Made by a program: the position numbers and the translations under genes. A DNA stretch of 64,000 bases from positions 138,129 to 202,128 of the forward strand of contig CBDCDW010000006.1 in the NCBI GenBank assembly GCA_965215595.1, in the 5' to 3' direction. Source of the stretch: an uncultured Candidatus Binatia bacterium (GTDB lineage Bacteria; Desulfobacterota; Binatia; UBA9968; CAXXLF01). Of this stretch, positions 5,948 through 48,602 are shown piece by piece. The notes beneath the pieces are model-generated. The model was not told the DNA's origin. It searched no databases and was given only the letters and a program-made list of their open reading frames with translations. Each line of letters begins with the position of its first letter. Within the stretch, counting starts at the first letter, position 1.

Positions 5948-6877
5948 ATGGGGACAGAGGATTCGACAGATAAGACCGATATTATGTCCTCAATCTCCTC
6001 CTGGAAAGATAAGCGATCGGGGCGGAATACCAGCAGCGCTAACGGCGAGGAAGGAAACCACGATACAAAGCGCGTTTCCACTGGAATTCCTGACCTTGAC
6101 CTTCTCATTGAAGGAGGCTTTCCAATTGGAAAGTCTTATCTCATTACAGGGGAACAAGGCTCAGGGAAAACCGTTTTTTGTATTCAGTTTATCCTGTCCA
6201 GTCTCCTAGCGGGGGAGAGGGTTGTTTACGTCACCGTCAATGAAAAACCGGCCGAAATCGTCGCAGAGGCGAACTCCCTTGGTTGGAGCCTGCTAGAGTT
6301 TGTCGAAGAGAAGAAACTCCTGATCTTAGATGCCTCTCCCCTACTATCCACTGGCACAAGCCGAACATCCAAGGGTGAAGGGCCGGATGTAGCAAAGACC
6401 GTTGGCGATCTCGCCAACTACGTCAAGAGAATGGAGGCCTCTCGTGTTGTCATCGATCCCGTTGGTCCCCTGATTGGCTCTGCCGATTCTACGTCTACAG
6501 CGCAGGATCACACCCGTACTCTGGTCCACGCCCTACAGGATAATATGGAAACAACCAATCTAATTACCTCCAACTCCGTAAGTGGCAACAGCATATGCGC
6601 GGCTGACGGGCAGGGGATCCCGGTTAATGGTGTTGTGGCTCTCGGATTTAGCCGAAAGCAAAACGGTTTGATCCGCACCCTCTTGGTGAGCAAAATGCGG
6701 GGGACAGCCATTGATCTCATTGAATACCCCTATGACATTGTCAAGGGAAAGGGAATTGTACTCAATCCAATCATTCCCAAGGCGCCGACAACACCCGACG
6801 CTCCCACTATGTCCGCAACACCGGCCACCGAGACATCAGAAGGCGGCTTGGACATTTTTAAGGAATGGGAACCGTAG
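5948..6877 (+). CDS. Single-domain KaiC/RadA/RecA-superfamily ATPase (KaiC-like, COG0467 type)
   Basis: 309 aa. GIPDLDLLIEGGFPIGKSYLITGEQGSGKTVFCIQF (KaiC-type Walker A region), VVYVTVNEKPAEIVAEANSLGW, LLILDAS (Walker B). Confidence 0.6.
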   Translation: MGTEDSTDKTDIMSSISSWKDKRSGRNTSSANGEEGNHDTKRVSTGIPDLDLLIEGGFPIGKSYLITGEQGSGKTVFCIQFILSSLLAGERVVYVTVNEKPAEIVAEANSLGWSLLEFVEEKKLLILDASPLLSTGTSRTSKGEGPDVAKTVGDLANYVKRMEASRVVIDPVGPLIGSADSTSTAQDHTRTLVHALQDNMETTNLITSNSVSGNSICAADGQGIPVNGVVALGFSRKQNGLIRTLLVSKMRGTAIDLIEYPYDIVKGKGIVLNPIIPKAPTTPDAPTMSATPATETSEGGLDIFKEWEP

Positions 6878-7129
6878 TAAAAATAGAACTCTACAGACGC
6901 AAACCTGCGGTTTTAACCTTTACAGGTTATTGCCTGACCGACTTCATGAATCTCTCACGCGTGAAGCTTAAGCTTTGATCATCTCCAACCGCCAACTCCT
7001 AAAGAAGCAACTGCCGGACTCGATACACATACCTCAAGATCACAATTATCAACGGTAGAGATGCTCACACGCGGAACCCGAAAAGATAGTACTCGGTAGA
7101 GTAGAGGACAGGCTTAGCTTGCTTTAGGC

Positions 7130-7830
7130 CGCACCTTGGCTGTATCCGCCGTTTCCAGCTTCGTGCCCGTTTAGGCACTTCCGTAACAAGCGTTCCTGTC
7201 CCCCCTCATCAAACCGTACTTGCAGTTTTCCCGCATACGGCTTTCCGATCATCTTCATCTCAAGGCATGCGAGGCCGCCTATTGAGCTCCCTCTTGGCCT
7301 TGAGATACAGTCTCCGCTAGAGGTCTCGAATCTTGTTAGGTGTTTGTAGCCTCACGGCAATCACCTCTCCTTCCCTCTTTAAGAGACACAATGAAAGTAG
7401 GGCGCCTTCCCTCAGCCGGCATTACCCAGCCTCCTCGGTAATACTCGCCCCTCCGACTTCTCGCCCGCCTGACCCTGACTTCGGTTTCCCTTATACCGAG
7501 CCATTGCGGCTATCACCCGCGACAAACGAGATCTCCCGCGTTACCCATCACAACTTCCCCCACATGCCGTCCCGACGACCCCGGAGAGCCCATCTGCTTC
7601 TGTCTCGGTTATTTCCACAGATGGCACCGGCCTTCCCCATCTGACCACAGGGTCGGCACTCTCAATCAGCAAGTTACGAGGCTCTATGGGTTCCCTAGTA
7701 GTACGGCCTGCGAGTTTGCGATCCTCTCCTTTTGGAAAGTTTTCTCGATCCACTTAGCCCTGAGAGTCACCCCTCAAAACCAGATCTTCGCTAGCGGGGT
7801 GAACCGTTAATTCCCCGCACCGGACTTTAA
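7130..7830 (-). mobile_element. ORF-less group II intron-like RNA with a canonical domain V. Boundaries are approximate.
   Basis: Minus-strand reading of 7246-7212 gives AAGCCGUAUGCGGGAAAACUGCAAGUACGGUUU. It has the AGC catalytic triad, lower stem AGCCGUAU/AUACGGUU, an AA two-nucleotide bulge, and a GAAA-type loop. A GUGCG 5'-end candidate lies at 7820-7816 just after a small hairpin. No ORF of 80 aa or more with RT motifs lies in the ~0.7-kb span. Confidence 0.5.
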
Positions 7831-7947
7831 CCGGCAAGTTGCACTGCTTCCGCGGCATACGATCAGCCTTGCCTACTTGCTATTTACGAAGGGGTCGATA
7901 ATGACGGTATCAGGCAGGTAAATTGACTTTAGACTTAAATTGACGGG

Positions 7948-9516
7948 CTAAAATGTTCTTCGGTCCAGGCTCCGGTATTGGATCGCCTCCGAAATATGTG
8001 CGGATTGAATGTCCCCGGAGCCTTCCAGGTCAGCTATCGTTCGACTCACTTTAAGAATCCGGTTGTAAGCCCGGGCGCTCAGGCCAAACTTGGTAATGGC
8101 CGTTTCCAATAGCTTCTGCCCTTCCCCACTCACTTCACAGAACCTCTTGAGCTCCTTTGCCCCCATCTGGGCGTTGGAATGGATCTTACCCTGCTGAAAC
8201 CGCTGGGTCTGCAGGCAACGCGCAGCGTTCACCCTTTCACGAATATCGTTTGACTGCTCGCCCGGGTCCCGTGAGGCCAGGTCTTGATACTGAACGGCAG
8301 GAACCTCCACCTGAATATCGATACGGTCCAAAAGCGGACCCGAAATCTTTGAGCGGTAACGCTGGATCTGAACCGGCGTGCAGTTGCACTCTTTCTGGGG
8401 ATCGGTAAAAAATCCGCAGGGGCACGGATTCATAGCAGCAACCAGCATGAAGCCGGCCGGATAGTTCATGGACCCTACGGCGCGGGACACGGTAATGCTA
8501 CCGTCCTCCAGGGGTTGTCGCATCACCTCGATCACGTTACGCCGAAATTCCGGCAGCTCGTCGAGGAAGAGAACGCCATTGTGCGCCAAGGATACTTCCC
8601 CGGGTTTGGGGACTGTTCCTCCACCCACGAGTCCAGCATCGGAGATGGTGTGATGGGGGGAACGGAATGGCCGTGTGGCCAATAGCGGTCTCCCATTGAG
8701 AAGGCCCATGACACTGTGGATTTTCGTGGTCTCCAGGGCCTCCGGTAGGGACATATCTGACAGCACCGTGGGCAGTCTCTTGGCCAGCATTGTCTTGCCC
8801 GAACCTGGAGGACCTATCAGCAGCACATTGTGAGCCCCAGCCGCTGCCACCTCCAGGGCCCGTTTCACATGCTGCTGTCCTTTCACATCACTGAAATCTG
8901 TGTCGTAAACGGAATGTCTGCGGAAGAGTTCTTCCATATCCACTCGAGTGGGTTGGAGAGTGGGTTCACCATTAAGGTACTCAATCACCTGAGGCAGGTT
9001 CTGGGCACCAAGTACCTCCACCCCAGACACCACTCCAGCTTCAGGCGCATTGGTGACAGGCAGGATAATACCCCGGAGGCCTTCCGCCTTTGCAGCCACG
9101 GCCACAGGCAAGGCCCCGCGAACGGATTTGACCTCACCGTCGAGGGAGAGCTCGCCTAACATGAGGTAATCCCGCAGCCGGTCGTTTTTCACCAGACCTT
9201 CAGCCGCCAGGATACCCACCGCCATGGGGAGGTCATAACCAGAGCCCTCCTTTTTGACGTCGGCCGGGGCTAAATTAATGGTGATCTTCTTCGCGGGAAA
9301 AGAATAACCGCAGTTTTTTAATGCCGCGCGGATACGATCTTTACTTTCTCGAACCGCTCCCTCCGCCAAGCCCACTGTGGCCAACTGCGGTAGGCCTGAA
9401 GCGATATCCACTTCCACCTCCACCCGCAGAGCATCTATGCCATAGAGGGAAGCACTATTGATCTTTGCAAGCATCTCGGAGCCAATCTGCCATTTTGGTA
9501 ACCGGAGGGGGATCAT
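7948..9516 (-). CDS. comM: YifB/ComM family Mg-chelatase-like AAA+ ATPase
   Basis: 522 aa. N-terminal Lon-protease-like domain, Walker A LLIGPPGSGKTM, FLDELPEF, and an MCM/Mg-chelatase-like C-terminus. Confidence 0.9.
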   Translation of the reverse strand: MIPLRLPKWQIGSEMLAKINSASLYGIDALRVEVEVDIASGLPQLATVGLAEGAVRESKDRIRAALKNCGYSFPAKKITINLAPADVKKEGSGYDLPMAVGILAAEGLVKNDRLRDYLMLGELSLDGEVKSVRGALPVAVAAKAEGLRGIILPVTNAPEAGVVSGVEVLGAQNLPQVIEYLNGEPTLQPTRVDMEELFRRHSVYDTDFSDVKGQQHVKRALEVAAAGAHNVLLIGPPGSGKTMLAKRLPTVLSDMSLPEALETTKIHSVMGLLNGRPLLATRPFRSPHHTISDAGLVGGGTVPKPGEVSLAHNGVLFLDELPEFRRNVIEVMRQPLEDGSITVSRAVGSMNYPAGFMLVAAMNPCPCGFFTDPQKECNCTPVQIQRYRSKISGPLLDRIDIQVEVPAVQYQDLASRDPGEQSNDIRERVNAARCLQTQRFQQGKIHSNAQMGAKELKRFCEVSGEGQKLLETAITKFGLSARAYNRILKVSRTIADLEGSGDIQSAHISEAIQYRSLDRRTF

Positions 9517-10067
9517 ACTGAAAAACCCAGCCGGGGGGAAGAAGAATTATGGGTCTCGTCTCATGTCCCAAAAATACTAACCAAACGAGGACGAAGGGCA
9601 AAGCGCTAAGCGCAGAGCGCAAAGCGTTAAAAGCATAGCGCCAAGAGAAATTAACCGCCGATTAACGGAGATGGACACAGACGGGGGAACAGCAAAGCGC
9701 CTCTGAGTAGTACTGAGTAGCGAGTGCTGAGGACTGAGAAGGGAGGGATGAGAATCGAGTATCGAGGATTGAAGATCGATGATCAAAAAAGGGTTGAAGG
9801 AGAGATCCAGACGCTATGCGCCATGCGCTTTGCTGTGCCCTGGTCGACGCAAATCTACGGTTAAAAAATTATTTGCACCATCGCCTTGGCGCAAAAATCT
9901 TTTTTGGATTCGTTTTGGCGACGACTGATATGGGAGCATAGAACCCCACAGTCGTCTTGCCAAGAGTTGGAAATCTTGGTAAGAGTATATATGGATGTCT
10001 TGAACAAGATTACCAGAAAAACCCAGGCCTTTGTCTGGGTTTTTTTATCGTTGCTCGGAGGTAAGCC

Positions 10068-26986: not shown

Positions 26987-27299
26987 GAAATGATCCTCTC
27001 TTCCTAAGCAAATTTTGAGCAGCACGACTTCAACAAAATACTTCGTACCAAGCGCCAAGTCTCCGGAGATTTATTAACCACTGATGAACGCAGACAAATA
27101 AATCTCTTAAGATTTAAGAATTTAACCGCAGACCCACGCAGATTAACGCAGATAATTTTCTGGCCAATTTGGCCAGGAAAAAAGTCTCTTTATCTGTGTC
27201 CATCTGCGTAAATCAGGGGTCAATAGCTCCTAACGCTATGCGCTTAGCACATGTCCCTTGGCTTCCTTTGCGTCTTTGCCCCTCGATTCCCCTTGGGCC

Positions 27300-27960
27300 C
27301 TGTGGTTCGAGTTCCCTCACCACCCTGAGCCCGTCGAAGGGCGGTTCTCGAAGGACGCGAGTGATCCTATTCCGAGCCTATCTCTTATGCCCAACAACCT
27401 ACCGAATAATCGCCGCTGATATTGCCACACTGTCCCTGAGGCCACAAATGAAAAAAGGGCTCGGGCGCCTGCCCTCAGCGGGAGCCGATGGGCCGCTACC
27501 TCGAGGCCCCGTCTTTTGATCCAGCATGCCAATATGGCTTGAACCTCCAGTATCGGACGTCTCCCTCTCTTCGGTGCAAGCCCCCTGCGCCCCAAGGTGA
27601 GCAACGAGGGATGAGTGCTGAGTACTGAGTGGAGGAGGAAAAGAAGTCGGAGATGGCTGAAGGTGCTCCCCGAGAGGAACATGGACGGAGCATCGGGCTA
27701 CCCACCGTGGTCGGCGCCGCATGAAAGCCGGAGTCCGCCCACGGTTAATCTGAGATCCGGAAGGTTCGTGCAAGCGCAGGCCCGGTGGGTCGCTGCGGGA
27801 GTCCCGTGGAACGAGGGGAGTGCCAAAGCCTCCATGGTACAAGTCTATTGCCCACGGCCTGGAGACTCGCTTCCCGAGGAGACACAGTGGGGGCGCCCGA
27901 GGGAAAGTCCTTACTCAATTGACGCAACTTCCAAGGAATGTTACATAATCTTATGGTGCG
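27300..27960. repeat. Copy 1 of a ~0.6-kb non-coding repeat family. Copy 2 is at 38230-38730.
   Basis: Blocks 27455-27510, 27527-27595 and 27780-27815 recur as reverse complements at 38555-38600, 38466-38545 and 38278-38310. Block 27303-27345 recurs in direct orientation at 38672-38712. No conserved ORF. Confidence 0.6.
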
Positions 27961-27969
27961 GTTATATGT

Positions 27970-28046
27970 CGGGGCGTAGCGCAGCCTGGTAGCGCACACG
28001 CTTGGGGTGCGTGAGGTCACCGGTTCAAATCCGGTCGCCCCGACCA
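27970..28046 (+). tRNA. tRNA-Pro (anticodon GGG)
   Basis: Acceptor cggggcg/cgccccg, D-arm gcgc-agcctggta-gcgc, anticodon stem cacgc/gcgtg with loop ttGGGgt, T-arm accgg-ttcaaat-ccggt, discriminator A, encoded CCA. Confidence 0.88.
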
Positions 28047-33006: not shown

Positions 33007-35304
33007 TTACTTTTCTCCCTCCAGGACACCCATAGCGCGCAGGATTTTCTCCGGGGTGAAGGGTGTCGAACGCACGCGCACTCCCACCGCATCATAGATG
33101 GCGTTTCCAATGGCCGGCGCAACGCAAGGTATGGAGACCTGCGCAATGGCCTTGGAACCAAAGGGTCCGGGTCCGTCGCCATTTTCCAGAATGATAGCAC
33201 GAAAGATTTCCGGGATATCGGTCATCAGAGGAAGGCGATACTGAAACGGATCAGCGTTCTGCAGCTGTCCATCCTGATAGTGGAGCTCTTCATAGAGGGC
33301 GAGACCCAACCCCATGGTTGCACCTCCTTCGATCTGACCCTTGGCAGAAGGGTAGTGCAACGCGATACCCGCATCCGCCACGGTGACGAACTGGAGCAGG
33401 CGAACGTTCCCGGTCTCTCGATCCACCTCCACCTCGGCTGCACCCACCCCTGGAGCCCAGTGATCATGGCCACCGAAGCTGGCGGACCCATGAGAACGAG
33501 AAGGCTGATAAGAGCCCCGTCCCTCGATTGAAACACCCGAATCCAACGACCGCTGAACTTCCGCGAAGGTCAATCTCACTTCTCCACGCCAGGCCCGTCC
33601 CCCACCCGCTTGCCACTCATCCGGATTGCCCCCTTTAATATTTGCCGCCTGGGCCGCGATTTTTTGCAGGAGGTCAGTGCAGGCCGCGTGGACCGCACCA
33701 CCCATCTGCAACGTGGTGCGCTGCGAGCTGGTGCCCGAGAATTTTAACTCGTTGGCGGTATCCGGCACTCCCACCTCCACCTGCGCCTGCGGAACATCCA
33801 ACGTCTTTGCCGCCACAACACTGATCATCGTAAACGCACCCTCCCCCACGTCCGGAGCGTTATGAGAGATGGTAACCCGTCCATCGGACCCCAGGGTCGC
33901 CAGCGCTTCCGCCGTTCCTACGTGAGAACCCCGGCGCATTGAAACGGAAATCCCGCGTCCCCTAACGACTCGCGCTGCCGCATCGCGCGTTTTGGTTTTC
34001 TTTTCATTGGGGTCCCAGCCGATTCCTTTCATTGCCTTCTCAATCAATTCAGACAAATGGGTGTCCACCGGCGGGGTCACAGCCTTGGACTCCTTGCCCC
34101 CGCGTTTCCAGAACTCGGGCGCGATGTATTCCCCCCAACGCAAAAGATTTTTCAGGCGGAATTCCACCGGATCCATCCCCAGTCGATGAGCAACATTGTC
34201 CATGGCACTGTCCACGGCAAAGGTGGTCTGATTTTTCCCCGTGTTACGAAACGGGCCGCAGGGCACTTTGTTTGTGAAGACGGTGCGCGCACGAACCCTA
34301 AAGTGAGGCACCCGGAAGCCACCCATGGACGAAGTCATGATGTTGTTAAGGATGATCGTCGCGCCGGTATAGTAACCACCGGTATCCACGAGGGCATCCA
34401 CGTCGAGACCAAGAATTGTCCCGTCTGCCTTGACCCCGATTCGTGCCTTGTAAACCATATTATCCTTCGCAGAGGCGCGGAAACTCTCTTCATCCGTAAC
34501 GACATACTTGATGGGTCGCCCGATCTGGCGCGAGAGCGCAGAGGCCACCATTGCCTCCTCGGATTGGTCTTTACCTCCGAAGTTTCCACCCACGAAAGGC
34601 ACTCGTACGCGAACCTTCTCTCGATTGAGTTCAAAAAGATGAGCGGCTGTATCCGCCACACGGTGTGGGCTGTTGGTGGGCACCCAGAAGTCCAGCATTT
34701 CATCGGTGAAATTCACCAAAGCACAACTGGCTGGTTCCATGGGATGGTGGTAAACATTTGGGCAGATAAAGGACTCTTCAAAAACGTGTTGAGCCTCTTT
34801 CATGGCACCATCCACGTCTCCCCATTCCATGGTGTCCTCTCTGGCTAGATTTGATCCAAGTTCCTCGTGAACCAGGGGAGCGCCAGGGGCCAGAGCCTCC
34901 TCAGCAGAGAACACCGGCGTTAATACCTCGTACTCCACATGGACTCGTGCCGCCGCCTGGCGCGCGGTGCGCAGGTCTGCGGCAGCAACCATCCCCAAAA
35001 AGTCGCCATCGTAGCGGACCTTGTCCATGCTGACGGTAATCTGGTCCGCCGCCGTTCGGGTGAGATTAATATGGGTGGGGCCCACTTGATCCATTCGGAT
35101 CACCCCATAGACACCGGGCATACGTTCCGCCTCCGATGAGTCAATGGAAAGAACCCGGGCATGGGAGTATGGGCTACGAAAAGCCGCCGCAAAGGCCATG
35201 CGCGGCAAATGGGCAAGGTCGTCCACGTACTTTGCCTGGCCTGTGACCTTTTCCAATGCGTCAACGCGTGTATGCTCGCGATTCGTCTCAGCAGGCGTGC
35301 TCAT
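33007..35304 (-). CDS. Molybdopterin-binding large subunit of a xanthine dehydrogenase/aldehyde oxidase-family hydroxylase
   Basis: 765 aa. Ald_Xan_dh_C and C2 domain layout; GGNFGGK, VPCGPFR-like and GEGAFT motifs. Confidence 0.8.
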   Translation of the reverse strand: MSTPAETNREHTRVDALEKVTGQAKYVDDLAHLPRMAFAAAFRSPYSHARVLSIDSSEAERMPGVYGVIRMDQVGPTHINLTRTAADQITVSMDKVRYDGDFLGMVAAADLRTARQAAARVHVEYEVLTPVFSAEEALAPGAPLVHEELGSNLAREDTMEWGDVDGAMKEAQHVFEESFICPNVYHHPMEPASCALVNFTDEMLDFWVPTNSPHRVADTAAHLFELNREKVRVRVPFVGGNFGGKDQSEEAMVASALSRQIGRPIKYVVTDEESFRASAKDNMVYKARIGVKADGTILGLDVDALVDTGGYYTGATIILNNIMTSSMGGFRVPHFRVRARTVFTNKVPCGPFRNTGKNQTTFAVDSAMDNVAHRLGMDPVEFRLKNLLRWGEYIAPEFWKRGGKESKAVTPPVDTHLSELIEKAMKGIGWDPNEKKTKTRDAAARVVRGRGISVSMRRGSHVGTAEALATLGSDGRVTISHNAPDVGEGAFTMISVVAAKTLDVPQAQVEVGVPDTANELKFSGTSSQRTTLQMGGAVHAACTDLLQKIAAQAANIKGGNPDEWQAGGGRAWRGEVRLTFAEVQRSLDSGVSIEGRGSYQPSRSHGSASFGGHDHWAPGVGAAEVEVDRETGNVRLLQFVTVADAGIALHYPSAKGQIEGGATMGLGLALYEELHYQDGQLQNADPFQYRLPLMTDIPEIFRAIILENGDGPGPFGSKAIAQVSIPCVAPAIGNAIYDAVGVRVRSTPFTPEKILRAMGVLEGEK

Positions 35305-35341
35305 CTATTCCTCCAAGTGACAACCAACCCTTTTCGCCGCA

Positions 35342-36538
35342 TCAAACCAATTCCGGGGCATCCTCGCCCCGCACGTAAACCACCTTGTTCTTTTCCGGAT
35401 CACGAATAATATGTTTCGGGTCGCGCCCCTTGCGTACCGCCTCCACCGAAAGGAGGCACATTACCCGCTGGGCGGTTAATACCTTATCATGGAACCCGAG
35501 ATGTTCTTTACTGCGGTCAGCTATGATCCCCTGAGACTCGTTGACCATACTGTCCTGAACCAAAAAGCCCTTGACTGCCGAGGCCTCAGTTCGATTGGGG
35601 ATACCCGAGATGGTATTGGCCTCTTCGTAACGCCTGTAGTAATCGTTGTGTGGACCGGGAGCATCGTATGGTCTGTCCACCGGCCACTCGAAGAGCTTGC
35701 CGTTCTGGTCTGGGGGTGAAAAGTAAACCTGAAATCTCCTGGTACTGCCATCGTCCATGGGCACATACCAGGACTGAAATTTCTGAATGAGGGTTCTATC
35801 CCTTGGACTACCCTGGATCCTCATAAAACCGGCCGGCATAAAAAAGTGGGCATAAACGAGATCGACAATTTCCCGACCGATGTCAGGGAGTAATGACTTC
35901 TGCCAGATGCCCCATTCCAATTCATGGAATTCCAGATGAGGCTTGGGCATAGATTGTAATCTGTGTTTGACCTTGGACCAATTGTCCATGTGAAGATACG
36001 AAAAGTGAACCGAGTCCACAGCACCTTCGACATTTTGCAGGTAGTTACTATTGATGTCATAGAAATCCACCTTGCGGCTGCCATCTTCTCTGATCAACAC
36101 CTCATAGCGTGGAAGCAACGGCTTTTTATCCGGCGGTCCCATATAGGTAAAGATCACCCCACCAAGCTCCTCACATGGATAAGATAAATGACCCACCCTC
36201 TCACAAAAGGGCTCCGGCTCCGCCGGTTGTTCCAAACAACGTCCTGCTACGTCGTATAGCCATCCGTGAAACGGACAGCGGATACCCCCATCCTCTACGC
36301 GACCGTAGGCAAGAGAGGTGAGCCGATGGGAACAGTTCAGTCCCAGGAGCCCCGCACGACCTTGATCATCGCGAAACAAAACCAGCTCTTCCCCCATTAT
36401 CTTGATCTGTTGGGGTTTCCCACCCGAAATTACATGCTTTGAAATTCCAACGGGCTGCCAATACCTGCGCAGCCACTCCCCTCCGGGTGTCCCTCGGTCA
36501 GTTTTGCAGAGAAGCTCGTTTTGTTCCCTAGTTAACAT
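35342..36538 (-). CDS. Rieske [2Fe-2S] non-heme iron oxygenase alpha-subunit-like protein
   Basis: 398 aa. CSHRLTSLAYGRVEDGGIRCPFHGW Rieske motif followed by a catalytic-domain-like region. Confidence 0.78.
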   Translation of the reverse strand: MLTREQNELLCKTDRGTPGGEWLRRYWQPVGISKHVISGGKPQQIKIMGEELVLFRDDQGRAGLLGLNCSHRLTSLAYGRVEDGGIRCPFHGWLYDVAGRCLEQPAEPEPFCERVGHLSYPCEELGGVIFTYMGPPDKKPLLPRYEVLIREDGSRKVDFYDINSNYLQNVEGAVDSVHFSYLHMDNWSKVKHRLQSMPKPHLEFHELEWGIWQKSLLPDIGREIVDLVYAHFFMPAGFMRIQGSPRDRTLIQKFQSWYVPMDDGSTRRFQVYFSPPDQNGKLFEWPVDRPYDAPGPHNDYYRRYEEANTISGIPNRTEASAVKGFLVQDSMVNESQGIIADRSKEHLGFHDKVLTAQRVMCLLSVEAVRKGRDPKHIIRDPEKNKVVYVRGEDAPELV

Positions 36539-38068: not shown

Positions 38069-38229
38069 ACCAGTCCTCCTGAAGTTGATAGCCCGCCATT
38101 TAGCGCTTAGGGCTCTTTTCCTAGCGCATTACTACCTTGCCCGCAGAATCGAGTCAAATGCACTGTTGCTCCATATAGCAAAGTGGGGTGAGAATTGTTT
38201 CGTTAGCCGTGTCCTACTAAAGAAATGAA

Positions 38230-38730
38230 GTTTGCACATTCCCCATCATCGTTAACTTAGGGTTTCGGGGTCTTGCTTCGCTCCACGGGACTCCCGCAGC
38301 GACCCACCCGGCATTCACTCCTATGAACCTCCAAAGCTTCAGCGCTCCTCGTGGAGCGAGTCTCGGTTCGGCTGAGCTCACCGTCGAAGCCCGGCCGCGG
38401 GCAACAGGTCTGTGATTATCTGAAGCTGAACGTTCGATGCCCACGGCCTTCCGTCTCGCTCCCCAGCGTCGCCTTACGGTTTTGGGGCGCAGGGGGAGTG
38501 GACCGAAGAGAGGGAGACGTCCGATACTGGAGGTTCAAGCCATATTGACATATCAGATCAAATGACGGGGCCTCGAGGCCTTGGCCCATCGGCTCCCGCT
38601 GAGGGGCAGGCCCCCGAGCCCCACCTCACATAGGTGAATGAGCGTTCCCGCCGTGGGACCGTTAAAGCGTGGTTCGACTTTGCTCACCATCCCGAGCCTG
38701 TCGAAGGAAAGGGAAAGCAGCTCCTATGAA
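38230..38730. repeat. Copy 2 of the ~0.6-kb non-coding repeat family. Mostly inverted relative to copy 1 at 27300-27960.
   Basis: See copy 1. It sits between the divergent UbiD-family gene and glnE. Confidence 0.6.
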
Positions 38731-38858
38731 TCATGTTCAATCCTTTGCCAGCACTGATGTTCTCAACCGACAGAACCACACTTTTTAACGGTGACTCAGG
38801 CACCGACTTGCACCTCCATTAACGCAGCATTATTCTAAAAAAGGAGCATTCACGAAAC

Positions 38859-44076: not shown

Positions 44077-44294
44077 AACAAAGATCTTACAACTCTCCTT
44101 TCCCACCAGTCAATTGGACCTGGGGGCTCCAATACCTTTGGACACGCATGGCGGTAAGTCTCGTCACTGCGCAGGACCGAAAGCAATTGACTGGAGGTCC
44201 AAATAGAAGGCCAATTCTTTCAACGAGTTGGAAGAGTTAAGGTTGAAAGAACGGGGTATCTATGTTAATTCCTTAAAAATTCTCGAGCAAGGTT

Positions 44295-44687
44295 ATGGAA
44301 AATACTTTAAAGCAAAACATCGATTTCGTTAAAGGTAAAGGGCTCGTCCCCGTGATCGTCCAGGACTATCAAACCCGCGATGTCCTAATGCTGGCTTATA
44401 TGAACCAGGAGGCCTGGGACAAGACACGAAGGACCGGTAAGGCCCACTACTACAGCCGTTCGCGCGGTAAACTTTGGCTTAAAGGGGAGGAATCCGGCCA
44501 TTTTCAGGAGGTTAAAAAGACCCTTATCGATTGCGACAACGACACCCTGGTACTCCAGGTGAGGCAGCGAGCCGGAGGTGCCTGCCACATGGGTTACCGG
44601 TCGTGCTTTTTTCGCAATCGGGCGCCGCGTGGCTGGAAGGTCTCAGAAAAAAGGCTTTTTAATCCCGAGGAGGTTTATAAAAAGTGA
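44295..44687 (+). CDS. hisI: Phosphoribosyl-AMP cyclohydrolase
   Basis: 130 aa. VPVIVQD...DVLMLAYMN...[10 protein letters not shown]...GxACHxGYRSCFF. Confidence 0.85.
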
Positions 44688-45622: not shown

Positions 45623-47026
45623 TCAATCGATCCTGAGGGCCTTGATCAACCTCATGAGGTGGGTTCTGTGAAGACCTAGGACCTTTGCTGCGGCGGCACG
45701 ATTTCCATTGGCTGCTTTAAGGGCTTCGAGAATGTAATCCCGTCTGGCAGTGTCTATGGCCTCATGATAGGATATGCCGCCGGGAGCAACCTTTGGTGGA
45801 GGAGCTCCGAATCTGGCGGGCAGATCCTTTAGAGTGATTTTCTGACCCTGCCCCAACACCACCGCCCGCTCCATTACATTGGCGAGCTCCCTAACATTGC
45901 CAGGCCAGTCGTAGGCCAGTAGCTTTTCCTGAGCTTCCTTGGTCATTTCAGTCAAGTTTTTCTTGGTCTCGCGTGAAAAACGCTGCAAGAAGAAGTGAGC
46001 CAGATCGGCGATATCGTCTCTTCTCTCTCTCAATGACGGCAAATTGATGGAGATGACATTGAGGCGATGGTAGAGATCCTCACGGAATCCACCAGTTTTA
46101 ACAGCCTCTTCGAGATTCCGATTTGTGGCAGCAACAATCCGTGCATTGATTCGTATGGGCTTGGTTCCGCCCACCCGCTCGAACTCTTTTTCTTGCAGAA
46201 ACCTGAGTAGCTTGGTTTGGAGTTCGGGGGTAATATCCCCAATTTCATCTAGGAATACCGTCCCTCCTAGAGCTAATTCGATCTTTCCCTTTTTAAGCTG
46301 ATGGGCCCCGGTAAAGGCGCCTTTTTCATGGCCAAAGAGTTCACTCTCAATCAGCTCTTTGGAAAGCCCCACGCAGTTAATTGCAATGAATGGTTCGGAC
46401 TTACTCTCGCTCCAATTGTGTATGGCACGGGCAAAAATTTCCTTGCCTGTACCGCTTTCCCCCAAGAGTAGAATTGTGGCTTGACTACTCGCCGCCTTCT
46501 TGGCCAGATCGATTGCCTGATTCATCACCGGGCTCTTTCCCGCCACAAGGCGATAGCGGTTTCCCACCTCCTCCGAGAGGATTTCCATCCCCCGCTTGAG
46601 CCTTTCCCGCTCAAGGACCTTTTGCACCGTCAGGGCCAGATGGTCCGGCTCAAAAGGTTTTGGGACAAAGTCATAAGCCCCTACTTTCATGGCCTCCACA
46701 GCCCGCTCAATGGTTCCGTGGGCCGTCACAATCACCACCGGAACATGATTCTCCCTCCTCTTGAGCTCTTTGAGAACTTCAAGTCCGTTCATATCCGGCA
46801 TCATGTAGTCCAGCAGGATGAGTTCCGGACGAAACGACTCAGCTTTTTGGAGAGCTTCCAAGCCGTTGTTAGCCCGCTCAATGGTATAGCCTAAGTCCGT
46901 AAGCTCCTGCTCTAAAAGGTCCAGGTTAAATAGCTCATCGTCAACGATCAAAATTTTATTAGACATACTAGCTTTGATTTTTGATTTTGGATTATTATCG
47001 GAAAAAAGTCTTCGCGCCAAGGCCAT
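45623..47026 (-). CDS. Sigma-54-dependent response regulator (NtrC/Fis family)
   Basis: 467 aa. REC domain (DDELFNLDLL...LLDYMMPDMNG), sigma-54 AAA+ domain (GESGTGKE; GAFTGA; ESELFGHEKGAFTGA), C-terminal Fis-type HTH. Confidence 0.85.
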   Translation of the reverse strand: MALARRLFSDNNPKSKIKASMSNKILIVDDELFNLDLLEQELTDLGYTIERANNGLEALQKAESFRPELILLDYMMPDMNGLEVLKELKRRENHVPVVIVTAHGTIERAVEAMKVGAYDFVPKPFEPDHLALTVQKVLERERLKRGMEILSEEVGNRYRLVAGKSPVMNQAIDLAKKAASSQATILLLGESGTGKEIFARAIHNWSESKSEPFIAINCVGLSKELIESELFGHEKGAFTGAHQLKKGKIELALGGTVFLDEIGDITPELQTKLLRFLQEKEFERVGGTKPIRINARIVAATNRNLEEAVKTGGFREDLYHRLNVISINLPSLRERRDDIADLAHFFLQRFSRETKKNLTEMTKEAQEKLLAYDWPGNVRELANVMERAVVLGQGQKITLKDLPARFGAPPPKVAPGGISYHEAIDTARRDYILEALKAANGNRAAAAKVLGLHRTHLMRLIKALRID

Positions 47027-47362
47027 TAAGAAATATTAACCGCAGATTTCCGCCGATCATCGCAGATTAAAAATGGCAAAGAGCAGAGCGCCAAGCGTCC
47101 TGATGGATTCGGGACCACTGACTACCGACTACTGACAGTTGACCCGGATCGAAGGATTGACGACCGGGAGTCTGTAGTCCGTTGTCAGTAGTCAGTTGTC
47201 TCTTTATGCTTCTCGCTCTGTCCTCAGTACTTGTTACTCAGTACTGAGTCCGCTTCGCTCTATGCCTTCTGCCCATTGCTTCCTCTTGTCCGTAGTCCTG
47301 TTGTCAGTCGTCCTGTAGTCGTTTTTCGCTTTGCGCTCTGCGCTTTGCTGCCCTCTGCTTCC

Positions 47363-48448: not shown

Positions 48449-48602
48449 AATCCTTCTTATTTTAGATTTCAGATTTTAGATTCTTACCGATAGAATGTTC
48501 AACAGAACGACTTCAACAAAGATTTTCGCGCCAAGACTATAAAGAAATATTAACCGCAGATTTTCGCCGATTAACGCAGATAATAGCGTATTGCGCCATG
48601 TA

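Follow-up and report, generated by a model that had tools for sequence, protein, structure and literature searches.

A family of probably mobile, non-coding repeats beside promoters in Candidatus Binatia genomes

Two long spacers and the repeat copies within them

We analyzed a stretch of 64,000 nucleotides (nt) from an uncultured Candidatus Binatia bacterium (contig CBDCDW010000006.1; hereafter, the window), focusing on two spacers that each contain a copy of the same non-coding repeat. The Binatia are an uncultured phylum, known from metagenomes only. One spacer of about 0.9 kb (27059-27969) separates an SDR gene from tRNA-Pro(GGG) at 27970-28046, and another of 0.79 kb (38069-38858) lies between the genes for a UbiD-family decarboxylase and GlnE; Pcm is also encoded among the flanking genes. 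Both spacers are gene-free, as stated in an earlier note made from the sequence alone, which had seen in them a two-copy unit compatible with either a structured RNA or a non-autonomous mobile element.

Comparison of the window with itself by blastn recovered three matches between the spacers, all of them reverse complements and in reversed order, which bears out the inverted blocks of the note: 27457-27595 with 38621-38482 (140 nt, 89-90% identical, E = 1e-47), 27762-27814 with 38330-38278 (53 nt, 83%, E = 1e-9) and 27862-27881 with 38364-38345 (20 nt, 90%). The last match is not significant alone (E = 0.17), yet it is collinear with the family alignment. Neither blastn nor a profile hidden Markov model found a third copy in the window, and the term "two-copy" holds within the window but fails beyond it, where the family is multi-copy. 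The limits had to be redrawn. The unit of about 0.6 kb beside tRNA-Pro (27300-27960) had merged the element with an unrelated unit resembling repetitive extragenic palindromes (REP) and with native spacer sequence; the true copies span 27458-27915 (copy A, forward strand, 458 nt) and 38175-38786 (copy B, reverse strand, 612 nt, between the two copies of a target duplication). The partner was called mostly inverted; the sole co-oriented piece (+/+; 27302-27340 with 38669-38707, 85% identical) is the separate REP-like unit.

The finding that no open reading frame is conserved between the copies was upheld. All six frames are equal in tblastx, stop-free frames vary by copy, and the conserved blocks contain insertions and deletions of 1-2 nt, not multiples of three. 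A small-protein reading was rejected, because no frame stays open across the copies and tblastx favors none.

The full element measures about 0.4-0.6 kb and is modular, with short putative terminal inverted repeats, an imperfect-palindrome rod of about 140 nt, a middle domain and a 3' block. The middle is of one of two kinds, a type-A domain or, in type B, a long hairpin whose loop is conserved. Loci compared with the window are labeled L001-L037, L033 being the window's own locus in an ENA assembly. Type A comprises copy A, L031 and the group-2 copies (L008, L012, L014, L016, L017, L022, L023, L025), and type B comprises copy B, L001-L005, L009/L010 and L026. Copy A is homologous to the copies in L031/L032 and to group 2. 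The three blocks noted earlier correspond to the 5' domain, the 3' block and the hairpin-arm module, and they appeared to be shuffled because copy A has type A and copy B type B architecture.

In copy A, the rod of the 5' domain occupies 27458-27593 (+). According to the alignment and pair counts, its outer helix P1 joins 27458-27475 to 27578-27593 and encloses two cores. Core 1 (CTCAGCGGGAGCCGATGG, 27474-27491, +) is near-invariant in 14 aligned copies and was absent from all search patterns. Core 2 (CTCCAGTATCGGACGTCTCC, 27545-27564, +) complements core 1 apart from the bulges AGT and ACGT, which are on one strand; its conservation is partly biased, as search patterns were drawn from it. The two strands of the resulting core helix read GGGAGCCGATGG / CCAGTATCGGACGTCTCCC. 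The rod of copy B is found at 38482-38623 (-), with core 1 at 38586-38603 and core 2 at 38513-38532.

The type-A middle domain of copy A (...GGAACATGGACGGAGCATCGGGC..., 27598-27761, +) is 82.5% identical over 166 nt to the L031 copy and is present in group-2 copies, but not in copy B. The corresponding type-B hairpin of copy B (38345-38464, -) has its arms at 38438-38464 and at 38345-38364 plus 38393-38404, with the conserved loop at 38405-38437; the arms, compared in seven copies, have undergone compensatory and wobble changes. The 3' block is common to both types. It reads GGGTCGCTGCGGGAGTCCCGTGGA... in copy A (27762-27815, +), matches copy B at 38278-38330 (-; 83%), recurs in L001, L012, L014 and L031, and has the consensus GGGTCGCT(G/A)CGGGAG.CC..GGA(G/A)CGA.

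Terminal inverted repeats of 9-11 nt are present at both ends in copy B and L001, the exact termini being uncertain by a few nt. In copy B they are AAAAAGTGTGG on the left (38776-38786, -) and CACCCCACTTT on the right (38180-38190, -). The left terminus extends to about 40 nt in common with L001 (AAAAAGTGTGGT...TTGAGAAC...CTGGC), directly adjoining the target duplication in both. The right one is common to L001 and L002 (CACC.CACTTT), and similarity between copies ends after CACTTT. Type-B elements can hence be written AAAAAGTGTGG...CC(A/C)CACTTT, or ...CACC(A/C)CACTTT for the right end. Group-2 copies have another terminal inverted repeat (19 nt, 95% complementary). In copy A, the terminal modules lie at 27849-27901 (+), where 27849-27881 is hairpin-arm-like and 27892-27901 (GGCGCCCGAG) is a perfect 10-nt inverted repeat of 27460-27469.

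Individual copies depart from this plan. Copy B has a 5' extension (38621-38775, -) with a nested REP-like unit at 38669-38707, and extension and unit are common to L010 (79%). In L001, core 1 and the 5' strand of P1 are missing along with the 5' extension, but both ends are retained (AAAAAGTGTGG...CCACACTTT), which reads as the signature of an internal-deletion derivative still recognizable by its ends. The forward-3' part of the element is missing from L003-L005 and L022.

Distribution, empty sites and target duplications

A 20-mer from a fully conserved stretch was found at five sites among 185,579 species representatives, all in one genome, that of an uncultured Candidatus Binatia bacterium (chromosome OZ244621.1, 4.46 Mb). 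This chromosome contains at least five copies, 82-89% identical to those of the window, which therefore belongs to another, related organism; homologs of its UbiD and SDR proteins confirm that it is affiliated with the Binatia. When metagenomes were scanned with an 18-mer, 21 loci came up. About 14 of them are true homologs over 100-400 nt; the other 7 are chance matches in coding sequence, about the number expected for an 18-mer. A further copy, in L031/L032, lacks the exact 18-mer. The Rfam check proposed in the earlier note was run on both window copies and both strands, and Rfam 15 gave nothing even at E<=10, nor any hit at gathering score in 13 further loci; the families without a match include group II introns, HEARO/omega RNAs, T-boxes and ribozymes. 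There was no match in plasmid and phage collections (blastn "distant" mode) or in viral contigs (24-mer scan), and a literature search for Binatia repeats found nothing.

The genes beside the copies are unrelated (tRNA-Pro, UbiD, cupin, DUF885, SDR, amidohydrolase, Aat, M20 and M3 peptidases, ArgJ, MetE-like, CutA). In the 12 independent contexts with both neighbors readable, 9 spacers are divergent, 3 tandem and none convergent. If about one quarter of spacers are divergent, which we assume from general knowledge, at least 9 of 12 would be divergent with a probability of about 4e-4.

The copies in L012 and L022, which are different loci, are 97% identical, whereas the orthologous copies at the aat locus of two species are only 86.5% identical, though the Aat proteins are 91% identical. 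The 5' domains of the two window copies are closer to each other (89-90%) than to any copy of OZ244621.1 (82-87%), despite their differing middle domains, which implies recombination or gene conversion among copies.

Three spacers could be compared in filled and empty states. The glnE-UbiD spacer measures 790 nt in the window versus about 150 nt in its relatives L027-L029 (UbiD 93% identical), L030 and L031/L032 (82%). The surplus of 642 nt (38166-38807) corresponds to the 612-nt element plus a second target copy (about 30 bp). The 33-nt target ATGGTGGTGCAACACTGTGCATTTGACTCGATT is single in L027 and double in the window, where it flanks copy B at 38787-38819 and 38147-38174. On the glnE side (33 nt, -), 21 of the 33 ungapped positions are identical to the empty site of L027, a score reached by 1 in 2000 shuffles; on the UbiD side (28 nt, -), no shuffle in 2000 scored as high. 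This gapped duplication was detected only by way of the empty site.

In the TENA/cupin spacer, the element is present in L001 and absent from L037 (flanking protein 92% identical). Here, L037 has one copy of a 24-nt target, A(G/C)CCTGTGTT.CCTTGACT.TCC.C, and L001 has a copy on either side of the element (left versus right copy, 0/2000 shuffles). In the hisI/cutA spacer, L031 has the element, and L030 and the window (44095-44310) do not.

The tRNA-Pro spacer is informative in another way. L036, whose SDR is 84% identical, has the flank 27395-27457 in common with the window as far as ...AAATGAAAAAG, so that the left limit of copy A is exact (27457/27458). Similarity resumes at CAATTGACG (27916), at the tRNA-Pro promoter, and a different 149-nt repeat lies in between. 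Because L036 has this other repeat between the same flanks, the site is, on this comparison, an insertion hot spot.

The sigma-70-like boxes that flank the copies are putative promoters, judged by consensus match and conservation. The tRNA-Pro promoter, TTGACG-N17-TACATA (27919-27947, +), belongs to the native flank, starts 4 nt after copy A and is conserved in L030, L031, L034 and L036. Further putative promoters are TTGACT-N17-TAGTAA for the UbiD gene (-35 box at 38152-38157, -10 box at 38129-38134), TTGCAC-N17-TATTCT for glnE (-35 box at 38808-38813, on +) and TTGACG...TAAGAT for cutA. There are -35 boxes 4-25 nt downstream of the ends of copy A, copy B and the copy in L031, and the boxes are conserved in relatives without the element.

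Both well-supported duplications (24 and 33 bp) take in a -35 box, and TTGACT lies 5-6 nt upstream of their end. The duplicated glnE/UbiD segment spans both divergent -35 boxes. In the glnE-side duplicate, TTGCAC is kept and TTGACT has decayed to CTGAGT; in the UbiD-side duplicate, TTGACT is kept and 3 nt of the glnE -35 box are lost. TTGACT has also been lost from the upstream duplicate of L001. This pattern of kept and decayed boxes would explain how an insertion into the 10-nt gap between back-to-back promoters was tolerated.

Candidate explanations

[quoted passage not shown] The observations behind this reading are a dispersed non-coding family, insertion polymorphism at three loci, two long target duplications, shared termini and the spread of composite copies. 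As to the last, copy B (38365-38392) and L026 carry an identical nested REP-like unit at one and the same position of the hairpin arm, and copy B and L010 likewise share a nested unit in the 5' extension; because these copies at different loci carry identically placed units, composite copies must have propagated as units. Of the two options in the earlier note, the mobile element is thus well supported, and a structured RNA is far less probable.

Mobile non-coding DNA is a description of the element that we hold to be probable, and our confidence in an enzyme class is much lower. Movement would be catalyzed in trans by an enzyme cutting 24-33 bp apart, for which transposases of the IS1202 subgroup or of the IS1549/IS1634 type (both DDE) may be the closest precedents. 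The invariant bulged helix of the rod is a candidate recognition module for the mobilizing enzyme or a host factor. The bias for divergent promoters could reflect targeting of -35-like or promoter DNA together with selection against disruptive insertions.

Most of the defining features of MITEs, as reviewed in PMC10969869, are present. Like the Correia elements of Neisseria and QMITE of Coxiella (PMC10969869), the element is non-coding, multi-copy and intergenic, with putative terminal inverted repeats and with flanking direct repeats, can form stable hairpins, is nested with other repeats and often lies just upstream of genes. Unlike most MITEs, it is larger (0.45-0.6 kb), GC-rich rather than AT-rich, and a mosaic with two alternative middle domains; its invariant cores are internal, not terminal, and its target duplications are 24-33 bp instead of 2-10 bp. 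In about 300 kb of related DNA, there was no autonomous partner IS (insertion sequence) whose ends match. Unusually long duplications are typical of the IS1202 subgroup (27-28 bp; bioRxiv 10.1101/2022.12.17.520857) and of IS1549/IS1634, where they are variable (8-514 bp; PMC2266710). The ends of IS1202-family members begin with TGT, and the inverted repeat of our element contains TGTGG...CCACA, with its TGT lying inside the limits set by the duplications, by 4 nt at the right end and 6 nt at the left. The likeness comprises duplication length and TGT-containing ends only. Both groups of insertion sequences are 1.5-2 kb long and encode a transposase, unlike the element, whose duplications, at 24 and 33 bp, match neither the class with a fixed length of 27-28 bp nor any enzyme that has been tested.

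The element also resembles REP sequences, bacterial interspersed mosaic elements (BIME) and REP doublets forming hairpins (REPIN), being dispersed, palindromic and intergenic, and the same genomes carry the nested REP-like unit of about 40 nt. REPs, which are 20-40 nt long, typically occur in convergent spacers or at the 3' ends of genes. Our element is 10-15 times longer and avoids convergent spacers.

Several observations weigh against a MITE-like element. No transposase or candidate mobilizing gene adjoins any copy, apart from an IS3-family gene by L005 whose ends are unrelated. Of about 12 copies examined, only 2 are flanked by significant direct repeats. When 12 copies were screened generically for exact direct repeats in their flanks, nearly all shuffles were outdone in L001 alone (2 of 300 as good); L031 was weaker (13 of 300), and its duplication was not significant in a later alignment test (269/2000). 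Undetectable duplications in most other copies are expected if the repeats have decayed, but they limit generality. Terminal repeats differ by subfamily, and copy A lacks the type-B terminus, beginning directly at the rod. A spacer of 5-10 non-conserved nt (5 in copy B), atypical for cut-and-paste DDE elements, separates the right inverted repeat from the duplication. Finally, the invariant internal cores and the compensatory change in the rod amount to more constraint than a decaying selfish repeat needs, which leaves room for a function at the level of RNA or single-stranded DNA.

It seems unlikely, though less so than the other alternatives, that the copies represent a mobile regulatory DNA module (a "mobile promoter" or insulator), kept for its effect on the transcription of the divergent genes beside it, exerted through an internal promoter, protein-binding sites in the cores or the uncoupling of two overlapping promoters. 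Convergent spacers should be safest for a purely selfish insert, and the 9/3/0 distribution of contexts and the insertions within a few nt of -35 boxes would both fit a regulatory role, as would the persistence of the aat-locus copy across species. Correia elements and "promoter reuse" provide precedents (PMC10969869, PMC3575422). The loop of the type-B hairpin resembles TGGGCA-N17-GATA(A/T)T, but this promoter-like match is weak: the scan gave 1 site versus 0.4 expected by chance, copy A has none, and for both intrinsic terminators and sigma-70 promoters, scans of the copies stayed at or below the chance level. Moreover, the native promoters are intact and a new one is not needed, and many copies are degenerate or interrupted. 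Putative mobile promoters are likewise highly similar intergenic sequences upstream of non-homologous genes, within and between genomes (PMC3575422), but here the native promoters are retained, and partly duplicated, with the element upstream of them.

Readings that involve RNA were judged by the structure of the 5' domain in a 14-sequence alignment. In the rod, 87% of cells are paired versus 45-59% when the 3' partner is slid by 1-3 columns, and 11 pairs have changed on both sides versus 4.8±1.3 in shuffles (0/500 as high). Complementarity is maintained, because the P1 sequences differ completely between lineages yet still pair (CTCGGGGGCC / GGCCCCCTGCG; GAGAGAGAGG / CCTCTCTCTC; GGCGAAGGGAGCC / GGCTCCCTTCGCC; GGGGGCGCGG / CCGCGCCCCC). 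The signals for a strand are mixed. The forward strand of the rod has more A·C than G·U mismatches, and in 13 of 14 copies the reverse strand gives the better fold (mean z about -3.6 versus -1.8). The type-B hairpin has the opposite bias, with more forward-strand G·U pairs, and full-length elements have weak z-scores on both strands (-2.6 to +0.3). Palindromes kept at the level of DNA or single-stranded DNA fit these data at least as well as an RNA.

The strand preference of the rod bears on the idea of a retroposed structured RNA, akin to a short interspersed nuclear element (SINE), transcribed from the reverse strand (- for copy A, + for copy B), ending in ...CCACACUUUUU and reverse-transcribed into a nicked target. 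We regard this as quite improbable, and slightly more so the specific version in which such a bacterial retroposon inserts at staggered nicks in promoter -35 regions, the bulged helix serving as a handle for the reverse transcriptase or endonuclease. An RNA with a terminal U-run would give long, variable duplications, a precise 3' junction and a ragged 5' junction. The duplications are indeed long and differ in length, one junction of both copy B and L001 coincides exactly with an A5/T5 run while the other has 5-10 extra non-conserved nt, and the forward-3' part of the element is missing from some copies. A possible source of reverse transcriptase is at hand in a group II intron in the same window (7096-7828, -), for which Rfam reports group-II-D1D4-6 at 7569-7828 (93 bits, E=6e-25) and domain V/VI of Intron_gpII at 7096-7245 (48 bits), so that a retroelement is present in the window as well. 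However, the elements are truncated at both ends, copy A is without the T-run end, the strand asymmetry of the rod is not seen in the type-B hairpin or in full-length elements, and the terminal inverted repeats are typical of DNA transposons. We also know of no bacterial reverse transcriptase that mobilizes such RNAs.

A cis-regulatory or trans-acting structured RNA family (riboswitch-, leader- or small-RNA-like), duplicated and kept for its RNA function, is very doubtful as well. It would account for the compensatory changes in P1, for two cores that are invariant across lineages whose P1 differs completely, and for the gene start on the forward-3' side of every copy. The last point carries little weight, since the position upstream of a co-oriented gene is automatic in divergent spacers for either orientation. 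Relatives whose flanking proteins are 82-93% identical lack the element at the orthologous loci, the downstream genes have no common pathway, other repeats interrupt copies even in core 1 (L031) and the rod (L010), and the RNA reading has neither an Rfam match nor strong z-scores for whole elements. Furthermore, the element is upstream of the conserved -35/-10 boxes of tRNA-Pro, UbiD and cutA and hence outside 5' untranslated regions, so that a riboswitch or leader role would not apply to these copies. A riboswitch or T-box-like leader, first suggested by co-oriented genes, several of them in amino-acid metabolism, was rejected because the orientation rule is vacuous in divergent spacers, the element lies upstream of conserved promoters and orthologous loci are empty.

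Least probable is a derivative of a single-strand-DNA transposon (an IS200/IS605-type palindrome-associated transposable element, possibly a remnant with an omega or guide RNA) whose rod would be the folded end recognized by an HUH transposase: the conserved imperfect hairpin with bulges confined to one strand and invariant flanking helices would suit it, as would complementarity maintained without a consistent RNA strand, but IS200/IS605 elements have neither target duplications nor terminal inverted repeats, whereas long duplications and putative inverted repeats are seen here, no TnpA, TnpB or IscB gene is near any copy, and there is no omega-RNA/HEARO match in Rfam. An AAAGTG motif upstream of P1 in L018 was dismissed as a chance match, being the end of the secA coding sequence.

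Nested repeats, gene content and significance

The REP-like unit near copy A (TGGTTCGA..CTCACC..CTGAGCC.GTCGAAGG; 27302-27345, +) is a direct match to 38669-38707 and lies outside the copy, separated from it by the native sequence 27395-27457. Units of this kind, of about 40 nt, are also found at 38365-38392, at about 205-255 of L010, at 3063-3108 of L031, and in L014, L017, L026 and L030. They are repeatedly nested in the element, in L031 inside the invariant core 1, and are probably mobile REPs of a family of their own.

Most of the SDR-proximal part of this spacer is filled, at 27024-27290, by a third family of repeats, an inverted repeat in its own right (CGCAGAT.../GACGCAAAG...), with weaker matches at 9592-9681, 46292-46336, 47026-47067 and 48548-48584. 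Its member at 1112-1259 of L036 occupies the exact place of copy A between the same flanks, so that different repeats appear to use the site just upstream of the tRNA-Pro -35 box. Other copies have been disturbed by unrelated DNA. L010 first looked 5'-truncated because an unrelated insertion of about 135 nt (343-477) splits its 5' domain after GGGCC. In L005, the IS3-family transposase gene (1700-2880; rve, HTH_21) is immediately upstream of the copy and is preceded by an extra fragment of a hairpin 3' half (1717-1778), which looks like a nested or tandem insertion.

Some differences in gene content concern the neighborhood rather than the element. Between thiC and ubiD, the window has two genes (33007-36538, -) that are absent from that position in L030 and L031, a difference between close relatives. 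A transposase among these extra genes was considered and rejected, as they encode a 765-aa molybdopterin-binding oxidoreductase and a 398-aa Rieske/LigXa-like oxygenase, not mobility functions. In L030 (a 3.36-Mb contig), glnE is called as three open reading frames (6819-9854; 611, 93 and 277 aa), whereas other relatives have one gene of 1010-1011 aa; this points to frameshifts, from long-read assembly errors or in a pseudogene. In L034/L035, an M20 peptidase gene (840-2123) is found between pcm and tRNA-Pro, next to an SDR-tRNA-Pro spacer without a copy. An M20 peptidase gene also adjoins the element in L017 (78-1337), a parallel that is possibly a coincidence.

On the MITE-like reading, the two long "empty" spacers of this genome are explained, and annotators of Binatia gain a repeat family to mask or track. 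The family would be new and previously uncatalogued, but otherwise an ordinary kind of genomic parasite and not a conserved RNA gene. The conserved bulged helix may serve as a handle for finding the mobilizing enzyme or an RNA function, and if the promoter bias is real targeting, this enzyme would be of interest for site-directed insertion. Promoter-spanning duplications with reciprocal decay are a neat and possibly general feature. The glnE/UbiD locus would provide a tidy natural example of promoter duplication followed by subfunctionalization, in which overlapping divergent promoters can be pulled 0.6 kb apart with neither of them killed.

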